From an uncultured Bradymonadales bacterium (GTDB lineage: Bacteria; Myxococcota_A; Bradymonadia; JAFGEP01), in NCBI GenBank assembly GCA_964503485.1, contig CAZDBH010000001.1:2888-66887 (forward strand): DNA of 64,000 nucleotides. Direction: 5' to 3'. The notes under the pieces were generated by a model. That model was not told the DNA's origin and made no database searches. It worked only from the letters and a program-made list of their open reading frames with translations. This document shows, one piece after another, positions 6,285 to 40,174 of the stretch. The position numbers and the translations under genes are program-made. Position 1 is the first letter of the stretch, and the number at the start of each line of letters is the position of its first letter.

Positions 6285-7756
6285 GCGCCAAAGAGCCAAC
6301 ACCACCCAGCCAGACGGGCGAGATTTCTGCGGCTCCCGCGGGGACCCGCTGGCGTGTCGTACGGCGATTCCGGCGCGAGGTCATCCTTGCGGGTATCGGC
6401 GGCATGTTCCTGATTCTCCTGTCGATCGAACGGCCCGCTGGGCTCTCGATGGACGGATGGAAGGCGTTGTGTCTGCTGGCATTCATTGTGACCTTGTGGG
6501 TCACGAACCTCATCCCCCTCGCCGTCAGCAGCCTGCTCGCCATCGCTGCGATTCCGCTGCTGGGACTGATGGAGGAGGGCGAAGCGTACGCCTACTTCGG
6601 GTCGAAAGTGGTCTTCTTCATCATGGGTGCATTTATCCTCGGAGCGGCGCTTGTCGGTTCAGGGCTCAGCACCCGTTTGGCGACTTGGGCTTTGACTCGA
6701 TTTGGAAAGACGCCTAGACGGCTGATCTTCACCTTCTTTGGTGTCGGCGCGTTGGGGTCAACCATCATGAGCGAACACGCCGTCGCCGCGATGCTCTTCC
6801 CGATCGCCATGAGTGTCAGTCGTAACATGGAATTGGCCACCGAGAATCGTCGTTACGGACGAACGCTTTTCATGGCGCTCGCCTGGGGCTGCATTGTTGG
6901 TGGCACAATGACGATCCTGGGCGGCGGTCGAGGTCCACTCGCGATCGGTATGCTCGAGGAGGCAACTAACGGTCAAATGACCGTTGGTTTCATGGAGTAC
7001 GTCGCCTTCGATCTGCCCCTGGTTATCTGGATGTTCTTTTTTGGCTTCCTGATGATCAAACGAAGTGGCGGTCTCAAGCAAGGCGAGGTCAACCCAGCAC
7101 GCGAGCGCCTGAAGACAAAACAGGGCAGGAGAGGAGAGGTCACCAACCGCGAATACGGTGTGGGCATTGTCATGGCCATTACCGTCGTTCTTTGGATCAT
7201 CCGGGGTCACGAGTGGGGCCTTGCGAATATCGCCATTATCTCGACGGCAGTACTCTTCGTTTTCGGCTGGATGACCTGGCGCGAGGTCGAGGATGGGGTC
7301 AACTGGGGCGTCATCTTGATGTACGGGGGCGCTATCTGCCTGGGCGCTGCGCTTCACAAATCGGGAGCCACCGTCTGGCTGACGGCTCCGCTGACCGACG
7401 GGGACTCACTCTCTCCTCAGTTGATTCTGTTCTGCTTGGCGGTCCTGTCGATGGTGTTGACCGAACTGATGAGCAACTCGGCAGTGATTGCTGTCTTGTT
7501 ACCGGTCGCCCTCGAATTGGGAGCGGCACGGGGCATCGACCTGCGTATCGTTACGATGACGATCGTGTTGCCGAGTAACTTCGCATTTGCATTCCCGATG
7601 GCGACCCCCGCCAACGCTCTGGCTTACTCTTCGGGTTTCCTCGACATGAAGACCATGGTAGTCCGTGGACTGCTAATGGACCTTCTGTGTTTGATTGGCT
7701 TCGGGTTGCTGTTATTCATCTACTGGCCTCTATTGGGCTACAGCATGGGGACGTGA
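6281..7756 (+). CDS. DASS/ArsB-NhaD superfamily anion permease
   Basis: Polytopic membrane protein with two hairpin Ser-Asn motifs (MSEHAVAA..P and MSNSAVIAVLLP / SNFAFAFPMATPANA) typical of divalent anion:Na+ symporters. The start was chosen at an in-frame GTG that overlaps the upstream stop. Confidence 0.55.
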   Translation: MSAKEPTPPSQTGEISAAPAGTRWRVVRRFRREVILAGIGGMFLILLSIERPAGLSMDGWKALCLLAFIVTLWVTNLIPLAVSSLLAIAAIPLLGLMEEGEAYAYFGSKVVFFIMGAFILGAALVGSGLSTRLATWALTRFGKTPRRLIFTFFGVGALGSTIMSEHAVAAMLFPIAMSVSRNMELATENRRYGRTLFMALAWGCIVGGTMTILGGGRGPLAIGMLEEATNGQMTVGFMEYVAFDLPLVIWMFFFGFLMIKRSGGLKQGEVNPARERLKTKQGRRGEVTNREYGVGIVMAITVVLWIIRGHEWGLANIAIISTAVLFVFGWMTWREVEDGVNWGVILMYGGAICLGAALHKSGATVWLTAPLTDGDSLSPQLILFCLAVLSMVLTELMSNSAVIAVLLPVALELGAARGIDLRIVTMTIVLPSNFAFAFPMATPANALAYSSGFLDMKTMVVRGLLMDLLCLIGFGLLLFIYWPLLGYSMGT

Positions 7757-8229
7757 TCGTTTTGAGTGTTTACCTCGTCACTTTGTCGAGCGAACGAGAC
7801 AGCGAGCTCCTTATTGAGCGCGCGCTGCACGACAGCGAGAAGGATTCCGCCAAACTCAGGGTGGTCTATGTCGTGATGCCTGCGGATGAGGCCAGCTTGG
7901 CCAAGCTTGGAGAGCAGGCCTGGGTGGGTCAGGCCCTTCTGGATGAGGCGACTCAAGAACTCAAACGCACTGCGCTCAAGGTGGCCATGGCGCGACTCGA
8001 AGAGATCTCTGAGTTGGCGAGAGAACGAGGCATCGACTGTTCGACCGATATCCTCGACGGGAATTTCGAGGTACTAACCCAATCGACAGCCTCAGATCGA
8101 CATGTTACTCGACTGTACGTCAACGGCAGAACCCGAGGCTTATTCAGCCGACTCTTTTTCGGGTCAGAGACAGCGCGCGTGGCGCAAGGTGCCGATTGTG
8201 AAGTAATCGTCGTCGAGGATGGAGTGTAA
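7753..8229 (+). CDS. Universal stress protein (UspA family)
   Basis: LRVVYVV...ARVAQGADCEVIVVE pattern of the UspA alpha/beta fold. A GTG start overlapping the permease stop (GTGA) was chosen; the ORF track start at 7687 overlaps the permease. Confidence 0.5.
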   Translation: MIVLSVYLVTLSSERDSELLIERALHDSEKDSAKLRVVYVVMPADEASLAKLGEQAWVGQALLDEATQELKRTALKVAMARLEEISELARERGIDCSTDILDGNFEVLTQSTASDRHVTRLYVNGRTRGLFSRLFFGSETARVAQGADCEVIVVEDGV

Positions 8230-8234
8230 TTCGT

Positions 8235-8687
8235 ATGTTTGGATATCTGCTCTTGTTTCACATCCTGTTCGCGTCGAGTTGGTGGGGTGTCCCGTTGGGG
8301 CTTCCCTCTCGGCTCAAACGAGCGCTGGCGGTCGATGGCAAAACCCTCCGGGCCGCCGCCGAAGACGCGAACCGTAGAGGCGCCATTGCTTCGGGCATGG
8401 GACTAATGACATTCGCAACGGGCCTGGGAATGGTCTTTAGTATCGGTGGTTTTGGATCGGTTGGACCCGAAATCCACGCAGCTATGACGATTGTTATCAT
8501 CATGTTGGCCCTAGGGCTGGCCGTCATGAAGCCGGGTGGGGCAAAGCTGTATGCGATGACCGATGACTGGAATGACAGCAAGACGGCTGAAGCAGAAGCC
8601 ATCATCAAGCGTCTGGCGATGGTCGGCGGCATCCTTCAGCTGCTTTGGGTCGGAACGTTGGTGTTGATGTTGTGGGGCCGCTTCTAG
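8235..8687 (+). CDS. Hypothetical membrane protein
   Basis: Four predicted TM segments; lies 6 bp downstream of usp in the same operon. Confidence 0.4.
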   Translation: MFGYLLLFHILFASSWWGVPLGLPSRLKRALAVDGKTLRAAAEDANRRGAIASGMGLMTFATGLGMVFSIGGFGSVGPEIHAAMTIVIIMLALGLAVMKPGGAKLYAMTDDWNDSKTAEAEAIIKRLAMVGGILQLLWVGTLVLMLWGRF

Positions 8688-8722
8688 GTCGAACAACCCA
8701 AGGCGGCGATTCCTGCCGTCAC

Positions 8723-10123
8723 CTAAGAGCGCAGTATTTCCTTCTCGAGATGAGCGACCGCTGAGCCGACCGTTTGATCGGATTCGACGAGGTCGCTGAT
8801 CTTACGGCAAGCAGCCAGCACGGTCGTGTGATCGCGACCGCCGAACTTTTCACCGAGCTGCGGATAGGAAAGGCCTGTCAGTCGCTTTGCCAAATACATG
8901 GCCAATTGGCGCGGCTTCGAGAAGGCGCGCTTGCGCTCTTTGCCTTTCATATCAGCGACACGAATCTGATAGTAGCTCGAGACGACCTTTTGGATGTGTT
9001 CGACACTGACGCGTCGATTGTCACCCTTGAGCAGTTGTTGCAGCAAACTCTTGGCCAGCTCCTTAGTGAGGCGCTTGTTGTTGAAGCCGCTGTAGGCGTG
9101 CAGACGAAGGAGCGCTCCCTCGATTTCGCGCACGTTGTCTCGAATGTGCTCTGCCAGGAAGAGGGCTACATCGGGAGTCAGTTCGAGGTTTAGGGCCTGT
9201 GCCTTTCGCTCGATAATCGCCAAACGCGTCTCGAGGGCCGGCGGTTGGATGTCGGCGATCAGGCCCCACTGAAAGCGTGAGCGAAGTCTGCTCTCGATAT
9301 CGCGCAAGTCTTGGGGCGTTCGATCGGAGGTGATGACGATCTGTTTGCCGGCCTGGTGGAGCGTGTTGAAGGTATGGAAGAACTCCTGTTTGGTGCTCTC
9401 TTTACCTGCCAGGAACTGAATATCATCGACGAGCAACACATCGACTTGATCGCGGTAGTACGCCCTGAAGGCCTTCATTTCACCGGCCTTGAGGTGCTCG
9501 ATCAGGCGATTCATGAAGTTTTCGGTCGTGGTGTAGTGGACGTTCAGCTTTGGATCGGCTCGAAGCAGTTCGATACCAACAGCGTTCAGAAGATGGGTTT
9601 TACCTAGACCAACTGCCCCATAGACGAAGAGCGGGTTATAGATGCACCCTGGATGGTTGAAGACAGTGCGACACGCCGCGTGAGCAAACTCATTGCTGTC
9701 ACCAACAACGAACGAATCAAACGAATACTGCAGCTTGAGACCACTGGCCAAAATACGTTCAGTCGGCGTTGGTTCTGCCGGTTGGATGGTCAGCGGTGGA
9801 TCGGTGAGAATCGAACGTTCATTCTGGCGTAGCTTTGGGATCGAATCGGGAACAGCGATACCGGGGCACTCTGTCTTGGCGAGCGGCTCATGGACGAGTT
9901 TTAGTTGAATCTCATCGCCTACGATACGCGTGAGATGGAGCCGAATGAGCTGAGCAAAGTTCCTTTCTATGAAGACGGCATCAAATTCATCATCGGCGAG
10001 CAAACAAAGTTCACTAGTTGTGAACTTTTGCGGTGTGAGCGGCCTGAACCAACGGTTGAACGTGGTCGCTGGTACTTTGGTTTGGATGGCAGCAAGAACA
10101 TCTTTCCAGTGTGCAATCATCAA
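8723..10123 (-). CDS. dnaA: Chromosomal replication initiator DnaA
   Basis: N-terminal WxxxLxxxxxxVPxxxFxxWxRPL, AAA+ Walker A GAVGLGKTHLLNA, DnaA signature VDVLLVDDIQFLAGKE, and a C-terminal DNA-binding domain. Confidence 0.95.
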   Translation of the reverse strand: MMIAHWKDVLAAIQTKVPATTFNRWFRPLTPQKFTTSELCLLADDEFDAVFIERNFAQLIRLHLTRIVGDEIQLKLVHEPLAKTECPGIAVPDSIPKLRQNERSILTDPPLTIQPAEPTPTERILASGLKLQYSFDSFVVGDSNEFAHAACRTVFNHPGCIYNPLFVYGAVGLGKTHLLNAVGIELLRADPKLNVHYTTTENFMNRLIEHLKAGEMKAFRAYYRDQVDVLLVDDIQFLAGKESTKQEFFHTFNTLHQAGKQIVITSDRTPQDLRDIESRLRSRFQWGLIADIQPPALETRLAIIERKAQALNLELTPDVALFLAEHIRDNVREIEGALLRLHAYSGFNNKRLTKELAKSLLQQLLKGDNRRVSVEHIQKVVSSYYQIRVADMKGKERKRAFSKPRQLAMYLAKRLTGLSYPQLGEKFGGRDHTTVLAACRKISDLVESDQTVGSAVAHLEKEILRS

Positions 10124-10927
10124 CTTCCTGGCCGAGCCGGTGGGTGGGTACCAGACAGATCCATCCGTCTCGTTGATTGTCCGTAATCAACGACAGTAGT
10201 ACCCGCCACACACTTCGTGTGTCGCAGTATTCAGATACGATGAAGCTCAAACAATCGAATGTGTCGCAACAGCGACTGACCGAATCCGATCGGTATTCGT
10301 CGCCATCCCCCGTCTTGCGCTCGCATTCGAATCAGTTTTCTTCTATGCGTGACGGAATCGGAAGCACAACGTCGTCATTAGGGAACCCCGCGTACCCAGG
10401 AATGCGACGTACTGCGTCTTCTCGAGTCCGAGAAACACGTTTTCAAAGAGGCTCGATAAACCGTTTACTCGTTTGAAAACCTGTGCTTAGGCAACTTTGA
10501 AGGGAGTGTTTTCCGCAGATCTACCCAAATGAACCAAACAGTCTGAACTGGGTAGCTCGCAGAGTGCTCTCTCCTCAACAGCCTCACACGCAACTTGCAA
10601 GCTAGAACATCAAAAATGGCTCGTCAACCGGTAATCGGCCATCTACATGAAATTTTAAGTGTATGATAAATAAGGTGAATTTTCCAAGTGCTGAAAAACG
10701 TTGCAGCTTTTTTCCTCGGCATTATTGGGACTCGATAAACGTAGGATTTTGTACGGAAAGTCGGTTGCCGAGCTCGCTGCCGAGCGAAAAATCACAAGTT
10801 GTGAGGTAGATCTTCACCCGCGCCATGCGGCCCACTAAGTACGGCTTTCTTCTGTGATTTCGTCGTCTTGTGTCGTGATCTCGAGAGATCTCAGGCCTGG
10901 CCCGGTCTGCGCGCCTCCCAAAATCGC

Positions 10928-10955
10928 TTGACATGGGTCGACGAGTGTCTATTTC
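10928..10955 (+). promoter_or_regulatory. Candidate sigma70-like promoter for groES (TTGACA-N16-TATTTC)
   Basis: A TTGACA hexamer and a weak -10 hexamer lie about 145 nt upstream of the groES ATG. No CIRCE inverted repeat was found. Confidence 0.25.
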
Positions 10956-11099
10956 TTTGCGCCGAATGAACCACCCTGCTTGGCGGCGATTTTTGTTGTC
11001 ATTTCACAGGAGTGGATTCTCTCGTTCCAGCATGAAGAAACAAGACTTTGGGAAGTGGTCACAGACCATTACGAGGCTTCCCCACACGGAGATATACGA

Positions 11100-11387
11100 A
11101 TGAACGTAAAACCATTGGGAGATCGAGTTCTAATTCGCAGGCTCGAGGAAGAGACGCGCAGCAAAGGTGGCATCATCATTCCTGATACCGCCAAAGAGAA
11201 GCCGATGCGCGGCGAAATCGTGGCGACAGGTCCAGGCGAACGAATCAAGGAAGGTGGCCGTCGACCCATGTCCGTGAAAGAGGGCGATACCGTCATCTTC
11301 GGAAAATACGCTGGAACCGAGGTAAAGGTTGATGGTGAGGACTACCTCCTCATTCGCGAAGACGAAATCTTCGCCGTCATCGATTGA
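11100..11387 (+). CDS. groES: Co-chaperonin GroES
   Basis: [35 protein letters not shown]... is the canonical GroES sequence. The true start is the internal ATG preceded by a GGAGA SD; the ORF track's upstream extension is not coding. Confidence 0.9.
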
Positions 11388-11446
11388 ACCAACCAAATCA
11401 TTAGCGGCCGTATCCTACGAGTTTCCGGTCCACTTAGGAGTTATAG

Positions 11447-13039
<1,593 letters not shown>

Positions 13040-30291: not shown

Positions 30292-31329
30292 TTAGCGAGC
30301 GCCCCTGCAGCGAATATCTTCGGGTGTGCAGTCGAATCGGACATGCATGTGATCGTGATGTCCGGACGCAAATCGAATAATGCCGCGATTGTTGCGGTGG
30401 CGGCGAGGTCCATACTGAAAGACCTCGGCCAGAAAGGCAGGATGCTCTCCGATCGACTCGGCATGCTCGTAGAGTCGAATCTGAAGCGGCCGTGAGATGA
30501 AGACATAAGTGATGTCGTGTTGCGTGATCAAAGTGCGAAGGAACGCCCATGTTCTGGCGGCATCGAGTTCCTGTGGCCGTGTACGGGAAAATTCGGGAGG
30601 CTCAGTGGTGTTCTCGAAGTAGGTCAGATCTACATCTCGGCCACTTTGATGACTGCGGTGAGGCCGAAAGGGGCCGCCAGTGATCTTGCTCATATCCGCA
30701 ATCATCATGCCCTGGCCGCCCGGATACTCCTCCTGAACCACTCGCAGCGCATGCACGAGACCATCAATCGTTTGAGTCGCAGCAAACGCGAGTCGTTCAT
30801 TGCGTACGACCCAGCCGGTTCCGCTGGGCATGAGCTCACCATTGACGAGGCGACCCTGATTTGGACGGTACTGCGAGCGCGCCGGCCGTTCCGGATCATA
30901 TTGCCAAACGACCAGTTCGGTTCCGTCTTCGGCCCGGGCAAGGTCGACTCCCGGGTTCAGCTCAGCGAGCTCCGAGGTTCGTAGGTGCCAACGTCTTCGA
31001 AGGCCGAACACCGAGTGCTCTTCACCGACGATCGAGGTGACAGCTGGGTGTCGGGGACGATCCAAGATTGCTAGATTCTGTGCGAATGCGTGGGCATGGG
31101 CCCCCGCAGAGCGGCCGAGATCCTGAATCTCCAATGCAGTAAGAACAGGCTCCCAATCGACCTCTGCGGCCGGTGCTTCCTGGAGCCCATTCGATTCCGA
31201 GATGGCGCCAACGACAGCTTGCGACGGTACTTCGTTCTGAACCACGCCACTTGACGCAGAGAGCACAACGCCGGCTAAAACCGCCGCACAAATCGCAATC
31301 GACAAGATATGTATGAGGCGAATCTTCAA
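30292..31329 (-). CDS. Penicillin-insensitive murein endopeptidase MepA-like (LAS/M74 metallopeptidase)
   Basis: RSHQSGRDVDLTY and GHHDHMHVRF match the MepA and LAS zinc-ligand motifs (H-x-SHQ-x-G-x-D-x-D...HxH). The start was moved to a TTG preceding the signal-anchor (IRLIHILSIAICAAVLAG); the upstream 110 aa of the track ORF look non-coding. Confidence 0.6.
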   Translation of the reverse strand: MKIRLIHILSIAICAAVLAGVVLSASSGVVQNEVPSQAVVGAISESNGLQEAPAAEVDWEPVLTALEIQDLGRSAGAHAHAFAQNLAILDRPRHPAVTSIVGEEHSVFGLRRRWHLRTSELAELNPGVDLARAEDGTELVVWQYDPERPARSQYRPNQGRLVNGELMPSGTGWVVRNERLAFAATQTIDGLVHALRVVQEEYPGGQGMMIADMSKITGGPFRPHRSHQSGRDVDLTYFENTTEPPEFSRTRPQELDAARTWAFLRTLITQHDITYVFISRPLQIRLYEHAESIGEHPAFLAEVFQYGPRRHRNNRGIIRFASGHHDHMHVRFDCTPEDIRCRGAR

Positions 31330-31637
31330 GAAGTAACACGCGCTATTTCGAAAACGGACGACTCCAACGGAGAAGGACCATAACAAAAGAAGGCACGCCC
31401 GTCGACTCCTTTTTGCCTGCAATATCAGCCGGTTGACGCTGACGCCTTTTGTTCTAGGGAGATTCGGCTCTCGCCGACTGCGATCAAAACGTCGGAAAGG
31501 GCCGAGAAATCGTATGGCGAACAGAGTCCTAAGTCGTGCGAATTGCAATGAAATCGAAGCCCAACTAGACTGTCCGCCGTCCGAAGCGGTTACCTGACCT
31601 TCACACCGCAAAAATTCATTTCGATTCGGAGGACTCC

Positions 31638-34358
31638 TTGCGACCAAGGTTCCCAATATGGGCCGTGTTGATCACGCTCGTAGCCTGCAACACCATCGAT
31701 CCCCCAGCCAACCCGGACGTATCGTTCGACGTCGTGCAAGAGGTGGGTTCGCGCGCCGATGGCCAAGACGCCCTCGAGGACGACGAAGATTCGGATGAGG
31801 ATCTCGAGGATGATTCGCAGGCCAGCGAGTGCACCGTCGAGCAATGCGAAATTGACGGTGAATGCTACGACAATGAAACAGCCAATCCGGACAATCCGTG
31901 CGAGGTCTGCCAGCTGCTGAGTGACCCTTTTTCATGGACTGCCGACGACAGCGCGAGCTGCGATGATGGCGACGCCTGCACAGTAGGTGACGCGTGCTTC
32001 GAGGGATCTTGTTCGGCGCTTGTGTTGACCTGTGAAGACGGCAACCCGTGTACAACAGACATTTGCGATGCCGACACGGGCGAGTGCACCAACGAACCCA
32101 CCTCAGGATCAAGCTGTGAGGACGGCAACCCATGCACGATCGGTGATACCTGCGTCGCCGGCACTTGCGAAGCCGGTTCGGGTGTTGCCCCTTGCAACGA
32201 TGGCAATGTGTGCACGGCTGATTCGTGCGACAGTCTCGAGGGCTGTGTCCACGAGCCATTGACCGATATCAGTTGCGACGACGGCAACCAGTGCACTGTC
32301 GGGGACTCCTGTCAGGCCGGGTTCTGTGTGGCAGGCGACGAAGAGATGGCCTGCGACGACGAGGATCTTTGCACCGTCGACGGATGCGATAGGCTACGCG
32401 GCTGCGTCTACACCTCGGTTGCACACCTTTGTGTCGACGAGAACCCCTGCACTGACGAAGCGTGCGACCCAGAAACAGGCTGCGTGTTCCCCTCGAATGA
32501 TGAGTTCTGCGATGACTCGAACGCCTGCACCGAAGGTGATCAGTGCACGGAAGGCGCCTGCCTCGGTTCCTCGGTCGACGTAACTGGGGACGTTTGCAAC
32601 GTGTTGAGCTGTGACCCGGATCTCGGGGTCTCGGTCCAGTACACAGACCTACCCTGTAGCGACTCGAACGCCTGTACCGTCGGCGACGTCTGCTCCTCGG
32701 GTGACTGCATCTCAGGTGCCGACGAGCCCGACTGCGACGACAAGAACATCTGTACCGACGACGACTGCGATCCTCAGGACGGCTGCACCCACGAAGACAA
32801 CACCGACGACTGCAACGACAACGATGCGTGCACCGAAGACGACATCTGTGGCGACGGGACCTGCGAAGGCCAGGAGATCGAATGTGACGACAACAATGCG
32901 TGTACCCGCAACGGATGTAACTCGTTCACAGGATGTGACTACGATTTGATCGTGAGCAGCACCTGCCGACCCCAGTTTACAGACATCTACCCCGCGCGGG
33001 CAGCCACGATTCAAGGCATTCGTCGAGCCATAACGGTGAGGGGCACGGTGCAAAGCGGGGCCGGCGACATCACGTCGTTGCTCTTGAACGGGGTCGAGCT
33101 AGCAGTTGCTGAGGATGGCAGCTTCTCCCACCAAATGACCCCTCTGGTGGGCGGAAACATCTTGGTCTTCGAAGCCACCGATTCGTGGGGCACGACCCGC
33201 AAACGGGTGCAGTCATTTCTCTGGTCACGTCAGTACCGCACGCCAACGGAGCCCAAGATCGGCATGGTGACCGAAGGCTTGGGGATCTTCCTCAGTGAGG
33301 ATGTCCTGGACGACGGCGAGAGGGAGTCACCACCGAATGACTTCGCGGGAATCTTCGAATTGGTGATGGCCTCAATCGACATGATGGACGCGATCAGCAA
33401 CCCAGTCGTCTCAACGTGGGCATACGACGTTCATATTCAGTCGATTAGCTACGAAGACCCGTCGGTGTATTTGGATCCCAACGATGGTCATTTGACGTTG
33501 ACCATTGTCATGGACAAACGAATCAACCCCGAGAGCAACGTTCGTTTTCGGGCCGGCCTGTATGTGGACACGCTGTGGGACGAATACGGATCGTTCACGG
33601 CCACCAGGGTGACGATCACGGCAAATGTGGTGCTGAGCGTCGATTCAAACCACAACATCGTCGCCACCGTCGCGGACGACGATATCAGTGTCGTCGTTAC
33701 CGGCGGGGACTTCAGTTTCGACGGTGTGATCGTCGACGCAATCGCCAGTCTCTTCAACAACTCGTTGGTCAGCACAATTGAGACTCAGTTCGAGTCGGCC
33801 ATCAAGAACCAAATCGAACCGATTCTAGAAGATGCGCTCGGCGGCCTCGCCTTCGATCAGGTTATTCCCTTTCCAAAACTGAGCGACCCCGACAGCAGTA
33901 TCGACGTGCGTTTGGTGACCGACTTCGAAGAGGTTGATGTAGCAGAGGCGGGTATCACCTTCATTGAGCGGGCCGGGGCCTACGCTGACGACGTCAACAG
34001 CTACGACAATCGCGGAGCAATGGGCCGGTCGGGTTGCGCGTTGGGCTCACAGACTTTGCCAATGCACGATGACGCTGTGCTGGAGCTGGCCTTGCCGGAC
34101 GATCTCTTGAACCAGTTGCTGTACTCGGCGTGGCAGGGGGGAATGCTCGAGTTCGATATTCCCCCCGAGATGTTGGGCGACATCGACTTGCCGGCCGGAG
34201 TCAGCGATCTCACCCTCGTGGCGAGCGGAATGCTCCAGCCAACTGCCGCCGACTGCAATCCGGACGGAGAACTACGCCTTCATCGGCGACCTGAGGGTAG
34301 ATGCCTCGATGCGAGTCATTGGCTCGCCGCTCGATGTCGTGATTTATGCGTCGTTTGA
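31638..34358 (+). CDS. Secreted lipoprotein with about 20 Myxococcus-type Cys-rich repeats (C-x-DGN-x-CT-x-D-x-C) plus approximately 550-aa C-terminal domain; frame continues in +1 (34270..34677)
   Basis: Lipobox LITLVAC, the acidic linker DEDSDEDLEDD, and repeats such as CEDGNPCTTDICDADTGEC and CDDGNQCTVGDSCQAGFC. The reading frame is apparently interrupted near 34262..34272 and the same protein continues in the +1 frame to 34677. Confidence 0.7.
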   Translation: MRPRFPIWAVLITLVACNTIDPPANPDVSFDVVQEVGSRADGQDALEDDEDSDEDLEDDSQASECTVEQCEIDGECYDNETANPDNPCEVCQLLSDPFSWTADDSASCDDGDACTVGDACFEGSCSALVLTCEDGNPCTTDICDADTGECTNEPTSGSSCEDGNPCTIGDTCVAGTCEAGSGVAPCNDGNVCTADSCDSLEGCVHEPLTDISCDDGNQCTVGDSCQAGFCVAGDEEMACDDEDLCTVDGCDRLRGCVYTSVAHLCVDENPCTDEACDPETGCVFPSNDEFCDDSNACTEGDQCTEGACLGSSVDVTGDVCNVLSCDPDLGVSVQYTDLPCSDSNACTVGDVCSSGDCISGADEPDCDDKNICTDDDCDPQDGCTHEDNTDDCNDNDACTEDDICGDGTCEGQEIECDDNNACTRNGCNSFTGCDYDLIVSSTCRPQFTDIYPARAATIQGIRRAITVRGTVQSGAGDITSLLLNGVELAVAEDGSFSHQMTPLVGGNILVFEATDSWGTTRKRVQSFLWSRQYRTPTEPKIGMVTEGLGIFLSEDVLDDGERESPPNDFAGIFELVMASIDMMDAISNPVVSTWAYDVHIQSISYEDPSVYLDPNDGHLTLTIVMDKRINPESNVRFRAGLYVDTLWDEYGSFTATRVTITANVVLSVDSNHNIVATVADDDISVVVTGGDFSFDGVIVDAIASLFNNSLVSTIETQFESAIKNQIEPILEDALGGLAFDQVIPFPKLSDPDSSIDVRLVTDFEEVDVAEAGITFIERAGAYADDVNSYDNRGAMGRSGCALGSQTLPMHDDAVLELALPDDLLNQLLYSAWQGGMLEFDIPPEMLGDIDLPAGVSDLTLVASGMLQPTAADCNPDGELRLHRRPEGRCLDASHWLAARCRDLCVV

Positions 34359-34677
34359 GGGCGGCCTCGAGCTCTCCGCAGGGGACGGCGAAGTCAACCT
34401 GTCGATGACCGACATCAGCCAACTCGAAACCGAGGTTACTGTTCAACAAGACTCGCTGGTCAGCCTCGAGTCGGAGTTCGAGGCACTGATCGCAGAGAGC
34501 CTGGTTCCCGCTCTGCTGGGCGCCCTTGGTGGAGACACACTTGGTGGATTCCCCCTACCTGAGATCGACTTGAGCGGAACAGTCGAAGGTGTCCCAGAAG
34601 GGACGGTAATCGCGATCGAGCCCGAGGACGTGTTCCGGGAAGCCGGAAACAGCTTCGTCCAGGGAGGTCTGCGTTGA
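34270..34677 (+). pseudogene. Downstream +1-frame continuation of the preceding Cys-repeat lipoprotein (apparent 1-nt deletion: frameshift or sequencing error)
   Basis: The frame-0 sequence ..AADCNPDGE reads naturally into the frame +1 sequence NYAFIGDLRVDASMRVIGSPLDVV.... A one-base insertion in ggagaac would restore a single 1013-aa ORF. Confidence 0.5.
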
Positions 34678-36644
34678 AAATACGACCCACCTTTCTGGTA
34701 ATGCTGACCATGTTGTTGTCCGCAGCCTGCCAATTCGACACTACGGAGCCGCCCCATCGAAGCGCGGTCCAAGTTGATTCGGGTTCCGGAGACCTCAATG
34801 ATCCCGATTTGTCGACGTTGCCAGACGAGGACGCAGACGATGTCTCGGCCGACAGCGAAGACCTGCAAGAGATGCTCTGCACCGAGGACGCTGATTGCGC
34901 CGACATGTTGGAGTGCACGTCCGAGAGCTGCAACACCGAGACTGGATTGTGCGAACGAGCTGTCGAGTCGGGAACGTGCTTGATCAACAACGTCTGCTAT
35001 GCGAGTGGTGATTCACACCCATCCGATCCCTGCTCTGCCTGCGATTCCAGCGAGCCAGGGACTTGGTCAGGTAAACAAGAGGGCGCCGCCTGCGATGACG
35101 GCAGCCTCTGCACGATTGGAACGACCTGCACCGAGGGGCTCTGCATCGGACTAGCAGTCGAGTGCGAGGACGCCAACGGCTGCACCAGCAACGAGTGTGA
35201 TCCGACCACAGGATGCATCTTCCCCCCCGCAAACGAAGGCGAGAGCTGTGATGATGGCAACGAGTGCACCCTGACCGATACCTGTCGAGAGGGACGTTGT
35301 TTTGGCACGACCCGAGACTGTGACGACGAGGACGTGTGCACCGACGATGCCTGCGATCCTGAGTCGGGATGCGTCAACGTCTTCAACACGGCGCCGTGTA
35401 GCGACGACGATGCCTGTACCGAGTTCGATGTCTGTTCCGAAGGGGTTTGCATTCCAGGTGACGAACCGAACTGCAACGATGGAAACATCTGTACCATCGA
35501 CGGCTGCGATGAGGTCGCCGGCTGCTTCCATCTCGTAAAGAACGACCCGTGCTGTGTTGGGAACACCTCGGTATGCGACGATGGCAACCCATGTACTGAC
35601 GACCTGTGCAACGATTCAGGCGGTTGCGATCGGGTAAACAACGACGCGGCCTGCGACGACCAAAACGCCTGCACAGAAGCGGATTCATGTGTCGAAGGGG
35701 CCTGCGGTGGCGCTGAACGAACCTGCGTAGACACCAACGAATGTACCGACGACACCTGCAACCCAGCGACAGGTTGCCTATTCATTCCCCTCAATGGCGA
35801 TAGCTACAGCTGCACTGACGGTTTCGACTGCACCGAAGACGACGTGTGTGTCGAAGGAAGCTGCCAAGGGGACGATTCCGCCTGTGTATGCGAGCCGGAA
35901 TTCCACGAACCGGCCGCGAAACTGACACTCCTGGCGATCGGAGCCGGTGGCCACCCGGGTGAAGCGCTCGATCTGGACGGTGACCCGACGACCTGCTCCC
36001 CCGAGACCGATTGCAGCGAAGGGCGCAACAACGCCCTCGGCATTCTGGCCGGCATCGTCAACCCACCCATGACGGAGAGTGTTCAAGATGGTTCGGTCAT
36101 GTTGGTCCTCGAATTCAGGGACTACGACCGCAATCCATTCGAACTGGCGGTCTACAGCGGTGAGCTGGACACGAGCAATGCGGACTGCGATCACCTTTCT
36201 GAACAATGTGACTATTGGGTGTCTGCAGACGGTATGGACCCCACCTGCGAGCCGGCGGTCAGCATGGCGGCAACTCGTTCGGGTGATCGGGTTTTCGCCG
36301 GTGGGCGTGGAACCGAGTTCCCGTTTGAAGTGCCTTTTGGAGAGTCGACCTTAACTCTTACGCTCTACGACGTCATCTTCGAGGGAACGGTCACCGAGAG
36401 CGACAGTGAGTTCGCGAGTATTAGCGGCATCCTGGCGGGTGCGGTAACGCGAGGCGAATTGTTGGCAGCGATCGAGGGGCTCGACGCCGACTCGCTGCCT
36501 TTCTCTCCCGACTCCATCGCTTCGCTGTTGAATACCGTAGTAGTCGACGACATCGACACCGATGGAACGGGCGAGCCCAACGCTGCATCGATCGCGATCA
36601 AGATGGAAGGAATCCCGGCCATAATCACCGGACTCGCCGAGTAA
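34674..36644 (+). CDS. Paralogous secreted lipoprotein with Myxococcus-type Cys-rich repeats and distinct C-terminal domain
   Basis: TTG start overlapping the previous stop (TTGA); lipobox LLSAAC; acidic linker DEDADDVSADSEDLQEM; repeats such as CDDGSLCTIGTTCTEGLC and CDDGNECTLTDTCREGRC. Confidence 0.7.
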   Translation: MKIRPTFLVMLTMLLSAACQFDTTEPPHRSAVQVDSGSGDLNDPDLSTLPDEDADDVSADSEDLQEMLCTEDADCADMLECTSESCNTETGLCERAVESGTCLINNVCYASGDSHPSDPCSACDSSEPGTWSGKQEGAACDDGSLCTIGTTCTEGLCIGLAVECEDANGCTSNECDPTTGCIFPPANEGESCDDGNECTLTDTCREGRCFGTTRDCDDEDVCTDDACDPESGCVNVFNTAPCSDDDACTEFDVCSEGVCIPGDEPNCNDGNICTIDGCDEVAGCFHLVKNDPCCVGNTSVCDDGNPCTDDLCNDSGGCDRVNNDAACDDQNACTEADSCVEGACGGAERTCVDTNECTDDTCNPATGCLFIPLNGDSYSCTDGFDCTEDDVCVEGSCQGDDSACVCEPEFHEPAAKLTLLAIGAGGHPGEALDLDGDPTTCSPETDCSEGRNNALGILAGIVNPPMTESVQDGSVMLVLEFRDYDRNPFELAVYSGELDTSNADCDHLSEQCDYWVSADGMDPTCEPAVSMAATRSGDRVFAGGRGTEFPFEVPFGESTLTLTLYDVIFEGTVTESDSEFASISGILAGAVTRGELLAAIEGLDADSLPFSPDSIASLLNTVVVDDIDTDGTGEPNAASIAIKMEGIPAIITGLAE

Positions 36645-40034: not shown

Positions 40035-40174
40035 CCCCGCCAACCAATCGCTGCTGACCGGCCGCGGGCACATGATCTAACTCGGTTTCGACACAGTCGC
40101 CTGAAATTTTTGGGTTCGGCAACAAGATCGCCGATTTGTTTCATGAAGGTCATTCGGCAGTAGCGAGAAACAGC

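Follow-up and report, generated by a model that had tools for sequence, protein, structure and literature searches.

A stretch of 64,000 nucleotides from an uncultured Bradymonadales bacterium (GenBank assembly GCA_964503485.1, contig CAZDBH010000001.1, positions 2,888 to 66,887; the whole stretch is called the window here) carries two adjacent plus-strand genes, A and B, whose products contain long arrays of cysteine-rich repeats. We propose, with a probability of about 0.6, that the two genes form an operon for lipid handling, in which a TULIP lipoprotein (A) and its partner (B) are both mounted on stalks and operate in analogy to TipA and TipB. The former is a double TULIP of Bdellovibrio bacteriovorus, where tipA and tipB are the genes bd2538 and bd2539 (bioRxiv 10.1101/2025.09.09.675085). 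Bacterial double TULIPs are only just being characterised, TipA/TipB being the first with structures, and how lipids are moved between cells by predators, or by bacteria generally, is an open question. An original prediction, made from the sequence of the window, had described A and B as tandem paralogues packed with Myxococcus-type cysteine-rich repeats.

Architecture of the two proteins

Both proteins appear to follow one plan, with a predicted lipid anchor at the N-terminus, a putatively disordered acidic linker, a long cysteine stalk and a distal head at the C-terminus (Table 1). The two genes each start with TTG after a strong Shine-Dalgarno sequence. When the signal peptides were inspected with the lipobox pattern [LVI][ASTVI][GAS]C, a lipobox was assigned to A (...ITLVAC) and to B (...LLSAAC, which is less canonical at -3). 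All homologues of A carry lipoboxes as well, for example LLGC, VGAC, LVAC, TVAC, FLGC or SAGC, and those of the B orthologues read LTAC, VVGC, PAGC, APAC, GAGC, SIGC, VVSC and LAAC. By this pattern, the genes A and B encode putative lipoproteins. Apart from the lipobox cysteine, each protein has 58 cysteines, an even number. Acidic residues greatly outnumber basic ones (203 D/E vs 33 K/R in A, 138 vs 18 in B), and the mature proteins have net charges of about -170 and -120, respectively. This extreme acidity may reflect a saline habitat or a heavy binding of divalent cations.

The repeats of both stalks belong to the Dicty_CTDC type and not to the Myxococcus type. With Pfam, PF00526 (Dicty_CTDC) matched A with 104 bits (E 3.2e-30) in 6 stretches and B with 63.3 bits (E 1.8e-17) in 5 stretches, which is far beyond chance and gives multiple tandem copies above the gathering cutoff of 27 bits in either protein. 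The same annotation is also precomputed on the homologues. When A and B were searched with TIGR02232 of NCBIfam, the model of the Myxococcus repeat, no match was found even at E ≤ 10, regardless of whether the whole proteins or the stalks alone were used, and NCBIfam overall gave no match for either protein. For a positive control, a canonical Myxococcus repeat was written and reached 142.3 bits on TIGR02232 in the same library, where the cutoff is 20.8 bits.

The stalk of A opens with a head module, C..C.....CY...P..PC..C...W, at residues 65-100 and contains 12 canonical units of four cysteines (residues 108-433) and one degenerate unit (residues 320-339). In B, 10 canonical units were found and one more that lies ahead of a CY..P..PC..C..W module common to A. 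The unit consists of a core of 18-19 residues and a linker of 6-11 residues, about 24-27 residues overall. Since it has four cysteines in both stalks, it can form at most two disulphides. Two sub-types largely alternate, C-x5-C-x5-C-x4-C with the sequence CxDGNxCTxGDxCxxGxC (5-5-4) and C-x5-C-x4-C-x5/6-C with the sequence CxDxNxCTxDxCDPxxGC (5-4-5/6). These counts differ from the 15-20 copies per protein and the three disulphides per unit that had been predicted.

It is very improbable that A and B are paralogues with Myxococcus-type repeats, with three disulphides per unit and C-terminal domains of no known kind. The repeats do resemble those of TIGR02232 in being acidic and rich in cysteine and in their local C-D-D-G-N motif, which is like its CDDGN core. 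TIGR02232 is common in Myxococcota, where the relatives are found, and the N-terminal halves of the two proteins are paralogous. However, the empty search stands against a 142-bit control, a different known family matches, the units of about 24-27 residues with four cysteines do not have the length of the 38-position model, and the head of A is recognisable as a double TULIP (see below). As a taxonomic clue, the repeat had led to the correct phylum, but on mistaken grounds.

In their N-terminal halves, from the signal peptide to the end of the stalk, A and B are collinear (36% identity, E 2e-51), whereas the heads differ. The two proteins are paralogous in these halves only, so that their description as tandem paralogues holds for one half of each. 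No tandem repeats were found at the DNA level in the stalks, which suggests that the repeat units are old and diverged. In paired orthologues with 40-50% identity the stalk length and the number of cysteines are kept, with about 380 residues and 56 cysteines in A and about 335 residues and 51 cysteines in B. The stalks would keep each head at a fixed distance from the membrane that carries the anchor, and this would assign the role of a rigid spacer to the 'Dictyostelium' repeats in bacteria.

The two heads and the conserved gene pair

The head of A was modelled with AlphaFold2 (AF2) as residues 445-1013 of the repaired protein (see below) with 17 homologues in the input. The model has a mean confidence (pLDDT) of 83.7 and a pTM of 0.83, and shows an immunoglobulin (Ig)-like sandwich followed by two helix-sheet-helix lobes. 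The order of the secondary-structure elements is duplicated in the predicted structure, giving two TULIP lobes back to back. When the model was compared with the PDB by Foldseek, the best matches were to BPI (1ewf, E 7e-19; 1bp1, E 2.6e-17) with TM scores of 0.61-0.63 normalised to BPI. BPI, LBP (4m4d) and CETP (2obd) were all matched with a probability of 1.00 over about 520 columns (E 7e-19 to 6e-17), and the further matches included P47, OrfX2, SPLUNC1/BPIFA1, YceB and JHBP. The head of A is thus predicted to have a double-TULIP fold, and would bind lipid.

For the Ig-like domain, Pfam gave Glucodextran_B with 25.2 bits, just below the cutoff, and PF09136 is precomputed on A homologues. The C-terminal lobe contains a conserved pair of cysteines at residues 800 and 873. 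The most conserved part of the A family is the TULIP head and not the stalk, and homologues with a short stalk keep the Ig-like and the TULIP domains with only 1-2 repeats. The original prediction had held the long C-terminal domains of A and B to be different and unrecognised. They do differ from each other, and neither has a match in Pfam or NCBIfam, but that of A is recognised by its predicted structure as a BPI/LBP/CETP-like double TULIP, which changes the interpretation.

The match to BPI raises the question of whether A is a weapon. LPS (lipopolysaccharide) binding by BPI relies on its cationic N-terminal lobe. A BPI-like A would bind the LPS of the prey and permeabilise the prey outer membrane, with B for targeting, and the pair would serve killing and not lipid trafficking. 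BPI itself is the best structural match of the A head. For TipA, a destabilisation of bilayers is described and an action like that of BPI has been suggested (bioRxiv 10.1101/2025.09.09.675085), and some relatives are found in Bradymonadia, cultured Bradymonadales being predators (PMC7188933). However, the TULIP head of A has a net charge of -65, with 20 K/R in 483 residues, which in comparison with the cationic lobe of BPI argues against a BPI-style LPS binding. In addition, a protein with a lipid anchor is not secreted in free form. We consider a killing function to be quite unlikely.

Two variants were observed in the A family. In L021 (1965-6089) and P0016, an extra cysteine-rich insert of about 280 residues lies between the TULIP lobes; the hidden Markov model positions 437/431 are split there by residues 839-1118. 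The insert of P0016 holds CxxC-rich modules, and in L021 no B gene follows. In the complete metagenome-assembled chromosome L026, the adjacent genes 7044-9941 and 9934-12576 both weakly match the profile of the Ig-like plus TULIP domains of A and would be tandem, distant double-TULIP-like paralogues.

The AF2 model of the B head is very confident (pLDDT 95.6, pTM 0.90). When it was compared with the PDB by Foldseek, no match was obtained at E ≤ 1e-3; the best was TbpB with E 0.023 and a TM score of at most 0.35. A sequence search of the B head against the PDB also gave nothing significant, and Pfam recognised no family in any of 34 proteins with the B domain. The alignment of these 34 sequences showed the conserved motifs G.PGEALD.D.DP.TC.P...CS.G.DN.L and DID.DGDG..DAASIG. 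Motifs of the DxDxDG type are associated with Ca2+ sites, and the acidic motifs of this type suggest that the B head binds Ca2+. An exhaustive HMMER search returned 454 representative clusters at E ≤ 1e-3, and the family has at least this size. The B head stands for a sizeable uncharacterised family with a very confident model and without a known fold relative or a Pfam entry. A remote homology between the B head and TULIP was considered and rejected, as hhalign aligned only the cysteine repeats, with a probability of 34%.

In 134 of 149 representatives, the B domain is located at the extreme C-terminus. Where the N-terminal region is long (105 representatives), four-cysteine repeats are present in 82, and the stalks of other B-domain proteins are made of Big_7/Big_13, FG-GAP or MopE-type repeats. 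The domain behaves as a module at the tips of extended stalks, the same tip being carried by stalks of different types. One protein of 4,804 residues (P0019) has 12 tandem copies of the tip domain. Among P0019, P0021, P0070, P0062 and P0147, the tip is found on stalks built either from Big_7 Ig domains plus FG-GAP or from repeats of the MopE type ('putative metal-binding'; 18 and 11 copies).

This distribution also bears on the question of whether A and B serve as structural or adhesive components of a matrix. In slime moulds, Dicty_CTDC is the repeat found in proteins of the extracellular matrix, and a scaffold cross-linked like that of EcmA/EcmB, with heads binding to polysaccharide, protein or a surface, would not require lipid transfer. 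The B domain is adhesin-like in that it tips Ig, FG-GAP and MopE-repeat proteins and occurs in the 12-copy arrays, and a protein with 11 thrombospondin type-1 (TSP1) repeats is encoded 3.4 kb downstream. What speaks against a mere scaffold is that the TULIP head, rather than the stalk, is best conserved in the A family, that the short-stalk homologues retain Ig and TULIP, and that the ligands of known TULIP folds are lipids or hydrophobic molecules. A matrix function is unlikely, in our view.

The A head was searched in 185,579 species-representative genomes. This gave 27 loci with A-type heads, the best being 45% identical, which shows that the species of the window is missing from this set. 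With the exception of some weak outliers, the loci with a named taxon belong to Myxococcota or to deltaproteobacterial metagenome-assembled genomes, and the named relatives include Bradymonadia, Nannocystaceae, Polyangiales and Paraliomyxa miuraensis. A B-type gene follows A directly in 8 of the 27 loci (L001-L005, L007, L008 and L022); the two genes there either overlap by 4 nt or lie 1-11 nt apart, and all of these B genes encode lipoboxes. In the metagenome loci, B follows A directly in L028 and after a gap of 268 nt in L040. This places the A-B pair in at least 10 loci from Myxococcota or metagenomes. The A homologues with only 1-2 repeats (650-750 residues) are without a B gene, and no conserved alternative partner was detected beside them.

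In the window, the neighbours of A and B are two genes of the opposite strand, for a Ser/Thr kinase and for an M74 peptidase, and a convergent gene without an assignment. No conserved neighbours were found beyond the pair itself; neither the kinase nor the M74 peptidase nor the downstream genes are syntenic with the related loci. Because the flanking genes are not shared, A-B is a self-contained two-gene unit. This distribution was weighed against a housekeeping function, in which the stalks would span the cell's own periplasm and the TULIP would ferry the cell's lipids or lipoproteins between its inner and outer membranes. Both proteins carry the lipoprotein signal, all their cysteines can pair in the oxidising periplasm, the stalk length is conserved as in a periplasmic ruler, and YceB, a TULIP lipoprotein of E. 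coli, is among the fold matches. The length of the TipA dimer has also been compared with periplasm-spanning transporters (bioRxiv 10.1101/2025.09.09.675085). However, the patchy spread (27 loci among all the genomes, with the pair in only 8), the non-syntenic flanks and the disruption that gene A tolerates in the window assembly are atypical of essential envelope machinery. We regard a transport within the own envelope as improbable.

The interrupted reading frame of gene A

Gene B is an open reading frame (ORF) of 656 codons at 34674..36644 on the plus strand, exactly as had been predicted. Gene A had been given as one gene at 31638..34677. This span of 3,040 nt is not divisible by 3, and the frame that starts with the TTG at 31638 ends at 34358 after 906 codons. 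The final 132 codons, up to the TGA of the restored frame, are in the +1 frame. When the window was aligned with the metagenome contig L038, the two differed in 3,477 nt only by a single gap of 2 nt, L038 having CGCCTCTTCATC and the window having CGCCTTCATC at about 34279/34280. With these two bases restored, gene A encodes 1,013 residues. A cluster look-up found near-identical, intact metagenome proteins, P0169 (1,003 residues), P0174 and P0175, which read ...CNPDGELRLFIGDLRVDAS... and have ELRLFIGDL across the shift site. In all 26 homologous loci that cover the shift region, A is a single ORF. The annotation is corrected accordingly: in the assembly as deposited, an indel of 2 bp splits gene A.

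The deletion is either genuine, as a mutation, or an error of the assembly. A second metagenome contig, L039, which is 100% identical to the window, begins at 34282, 2-3 nt past the indel. Such a start would be in line with co-existing alleles at which that assembly broke off, or with systematic sequencing trouble at CTCT.

A programmed +1 ribosomal frameshift, by which the break in gene A would be a means of expression and not a damage, was considered and rejected. The frameshift site of prfB has a Shine-Dalgarno-like element at a distance of 3 nt. The shift required in A would be +1 at CUU C, which is superficially similar to prfB, and a GGAG lies upstream. However, this GGAG is 8 nt away, the A site has no stop or rare codon, the otherwise identical contigs hold the in-frame sequence with two extra bases, and the single ORF is found in every homologous locus that covers the region. 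We regard such a frameshift as hardly credible.

The TTGA overlap of 4 nt between the stop codon of A and the start codon of B is present at 34674-34677. The co-translation that had been predicted from it is backed by the coupling kept in the orthologues, whereas in the window itself ribosomes translating A would stop 316 nt ahead of B. The span of 31827-35895 given for the repeats does contain them, but also the whole non-repeat head of A (32970-34674). Taken together, the observations of the original prediction stand for the dense repeats, the extent of B and the overlap and fall for the extent of A, the copy number and the disulphides; of its interpretation, the tight coupling and the N-terminal paralogy are supported and the central repeat identity is not.

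Upstream of gene A, a scan for sigma-70 promoters found nothing. The ORF of the M74 (MepA-like) peptidase (30292-31656, minus strand) runs to a TTG at 31656 and overlaps the start of A. Since its Pfam match is confined to the C-terminal 180 residues, the true start of the peptidase is probably far downstream, leaving about 300-400 nt of intergenic sequence before A. Downstream of B, a large plus-strand ORF at 40076-43720 (1,215 codons from stop to stop) has a lipobox-like start, MISFSRTTVVRLLCALILPITSSC, and contains the 11 TSP1 repeats (PF19028, 557 bits; PF00090, 289 bits). These are followed by a cysteine-rich tail with repeated CGCNGPCG.DE.C motifs. TSP1 is best known as an adhesive domain of metazoans and apicomplexans.

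Table 1. Positions of the features of genes A and B in the window
Feature	Position	Strand	Basis
Gene A start: Shine-Dalgarno GGAGG 31628-31632, 5-nt spacer, TTG 31638-31640	31628..31640	+	read from sequence
Gene A, putative lipoprotein signal peptide MRPRFPIWAVLITLVAC; lipobox LVAC, Cys17	31638..31688	+	translation; pattern-based
Gene A, acidic low-complexity linker, residues 18-64; 18 D/E, 1 K/R	31689..31829	+	
Gene A, cysteine-rich stalk, residues 65-444, 56 Cys	31830..32969	+	PF00526 match, unit parse
Gene A, predicted Ig-like beta-sandwich, residues 445-530	32970..33227	+	AF2 model residues 1-86, pLDDT >90
Gene A, predicted double-TULIP (BPI/LBP/CETP-like) head, residues 531-1013 of repaired protein; two frames in window	33228..34674	+	AF2, Foldseek
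Frameshift site: 2-bp (CT) deletion within CTCT; ORF then runs to TGA 34356-34358	34278..34281	+	window vs L038 alignment
A-B junction: Shine-Dalgarno GGGAGG 34662-34667, B TTG 34674-34676, TGA of restored A frame 34675-34677	34662..34677	+	sequence
Gene B, putative signal peptide MKIRPTFLVMLTMLLSAAC; lipobox-like SAAC, Cys19	34674..34730	+	translation
Gene B, cysteine-rich stalk, residues 69-403, 51 Cys, ~11 Dicty_CTDC-type units	34878..35882	+	PF00526, unit parse
Gene B, C-terminal tip domain, residues 404-656 (253 aa); beta-rich, three helices	35883..36641	+	AF2
Gene B tip domain, conserved acidic motif GEALDLDGD	35958-35984	+	
Gene B tip domain, conserved motif G.(D/N)N.L	36021-36041	+	
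Gene B tip domain, sub-clade motif GTxFPFxxPF	36303-36338	+	
Gene B tip domain, conserved acidic motif DIDTDG....AAS	36546-36590	+	

The lipid-handling reading and known systems

In the reading that we favour, A would take up or deliver lipids via a putative hydrophobic tube. B, with a head that would bind Ca2+, would act as the partner of A and either dock the pair on a target envelope or gate the TULIP. The pair, presumably exposed at the cell surface, would act at a cell-cell or cell-envelope interface, plausibly in the handling of lipids upon prey contact by a Myxococcota predator.

Several observations weigh against this reading. The Pfam families LBP_BPI_CETP (PF01273) and LBP_BPI_CETP_C (PF02886) gave no match to A at E ≤ 0.1, and a profile search of the A head against the PDB found nothing significant, LBP being at the top with E 0.27. 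The acidic TULIP head is unlike the cationic BPI. If the deletion is real, the A product of the window has lost the greater part of its C-terminal TULIP lobe (residues ~438-569 of the model). B is a stalked lipoprotein of 656 residues and not a small adaptor like TipB, and no C2, ExsB or phospholipase A2 entry was found among the 50 listed Foldseek matches of its head. In L031, L035 and L036, the B domain occurs without a TULIP gene nearby. Because of this and of the tandem arrays, the B domain is not a dedicated TULIP adaptor. The matrix, killing and self-envelope-transport explanations are the less likely alternatives, killing being weakened by the acidic charge.

A more specific version of the lipid-handling proposal is that A-B is a Myxococcota-specific counterpart of TipA/TipB that evolved independently. 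A BPI-like tube and a Ca2+-dependent tip of a fold without a PDB counterpart, both on disulphide-knotted surface stalks of conserved length, would then dock on the envelope of the prey and, upon contact, remove lipids from it or insert them. This version is tentative and rather doubtful as a whole. If it were true, the B domain would represent a new class of stalk-tip binding module.

Among the known systems, the Dictyostelium repeat (PF00526, e.g. EcmA/EcmB) has the period of about 24 residues and the four cysteines per unit in common with the repeats of A and B. The latter differ by the bacterial host, by the two largely alternating sub-types and by forming the stalk of putative lipoproteins with distinct heads. 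Dicty_CTDC is among the families without a solved structure (PMC8078820).

The two-lobe, tubular lipid-binding fold of the eukaryotic BPI, LBP and CETP aligns with the predicted A head over its whole length. The identity is only 10-12%, there is no Pfam match, and the A head is strongly acidic in contrast to the cationic N-terminal lobe of BPI. The A head is also unlike these proteins in its conserved cysteine pair and in being placed on an Ig domain, a cysteine stalk and a lipid anchor. Of the bacterial TULIPs, P47 and OrfX2 of Clostridium botulinum and YceB of E. coli match the A head with E 1.8e-8, 5e-6 and 2e-3, respectively. These matches (TM 0.14-0.47) are far weaker than that of BPI, and the proteins have other numbers of domains and another gene context (neurotoxin clusters).

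The closest parallel is TipA/TipB. There, tipB overlaps tipA by 4 nt, TipA binds to lipids and to membranes, and the beta-sandwich adaptor TipB opens the TULIP; double TULIPs fused to extra beta-sandwich domains have also been reported (bioRxiv 10.1101/2025.09.09.675085). In both systems, the gene for a secreted BPI-like double TULIP lies directly upstream of the gene for its partner, with an overlap of 4 nt, the partner is rich in beta structure, and the lineages are predatory or related to predators. The Ig-like sandwich directly before the TULIP of A is comparable to the reported fusions. However, TipA is a soluble homodimer without a cysteine stalk or a reported lipobox, whereas A and B are putative lipoproteins on cysteine stalks of about 335-380 residues. 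TipB is a small C2-like sandwich with hydrophobic interaction loops that binds neither Ca2+ nor membranes; the B head has 253 residues, DxDxDG-type motifs and no fold match in the PDB. No TipA entry was found among the listed PDB matches of the A head, by structure or by sequence. We treat A-B as a system that may work like TipA/TipB and not as a member of it. The pair would represent a second, architecturally different double-TULIP solution across several Myxococcota lineages, lipid-anchored, on a long stalk of conserved length and with a stalked partner.

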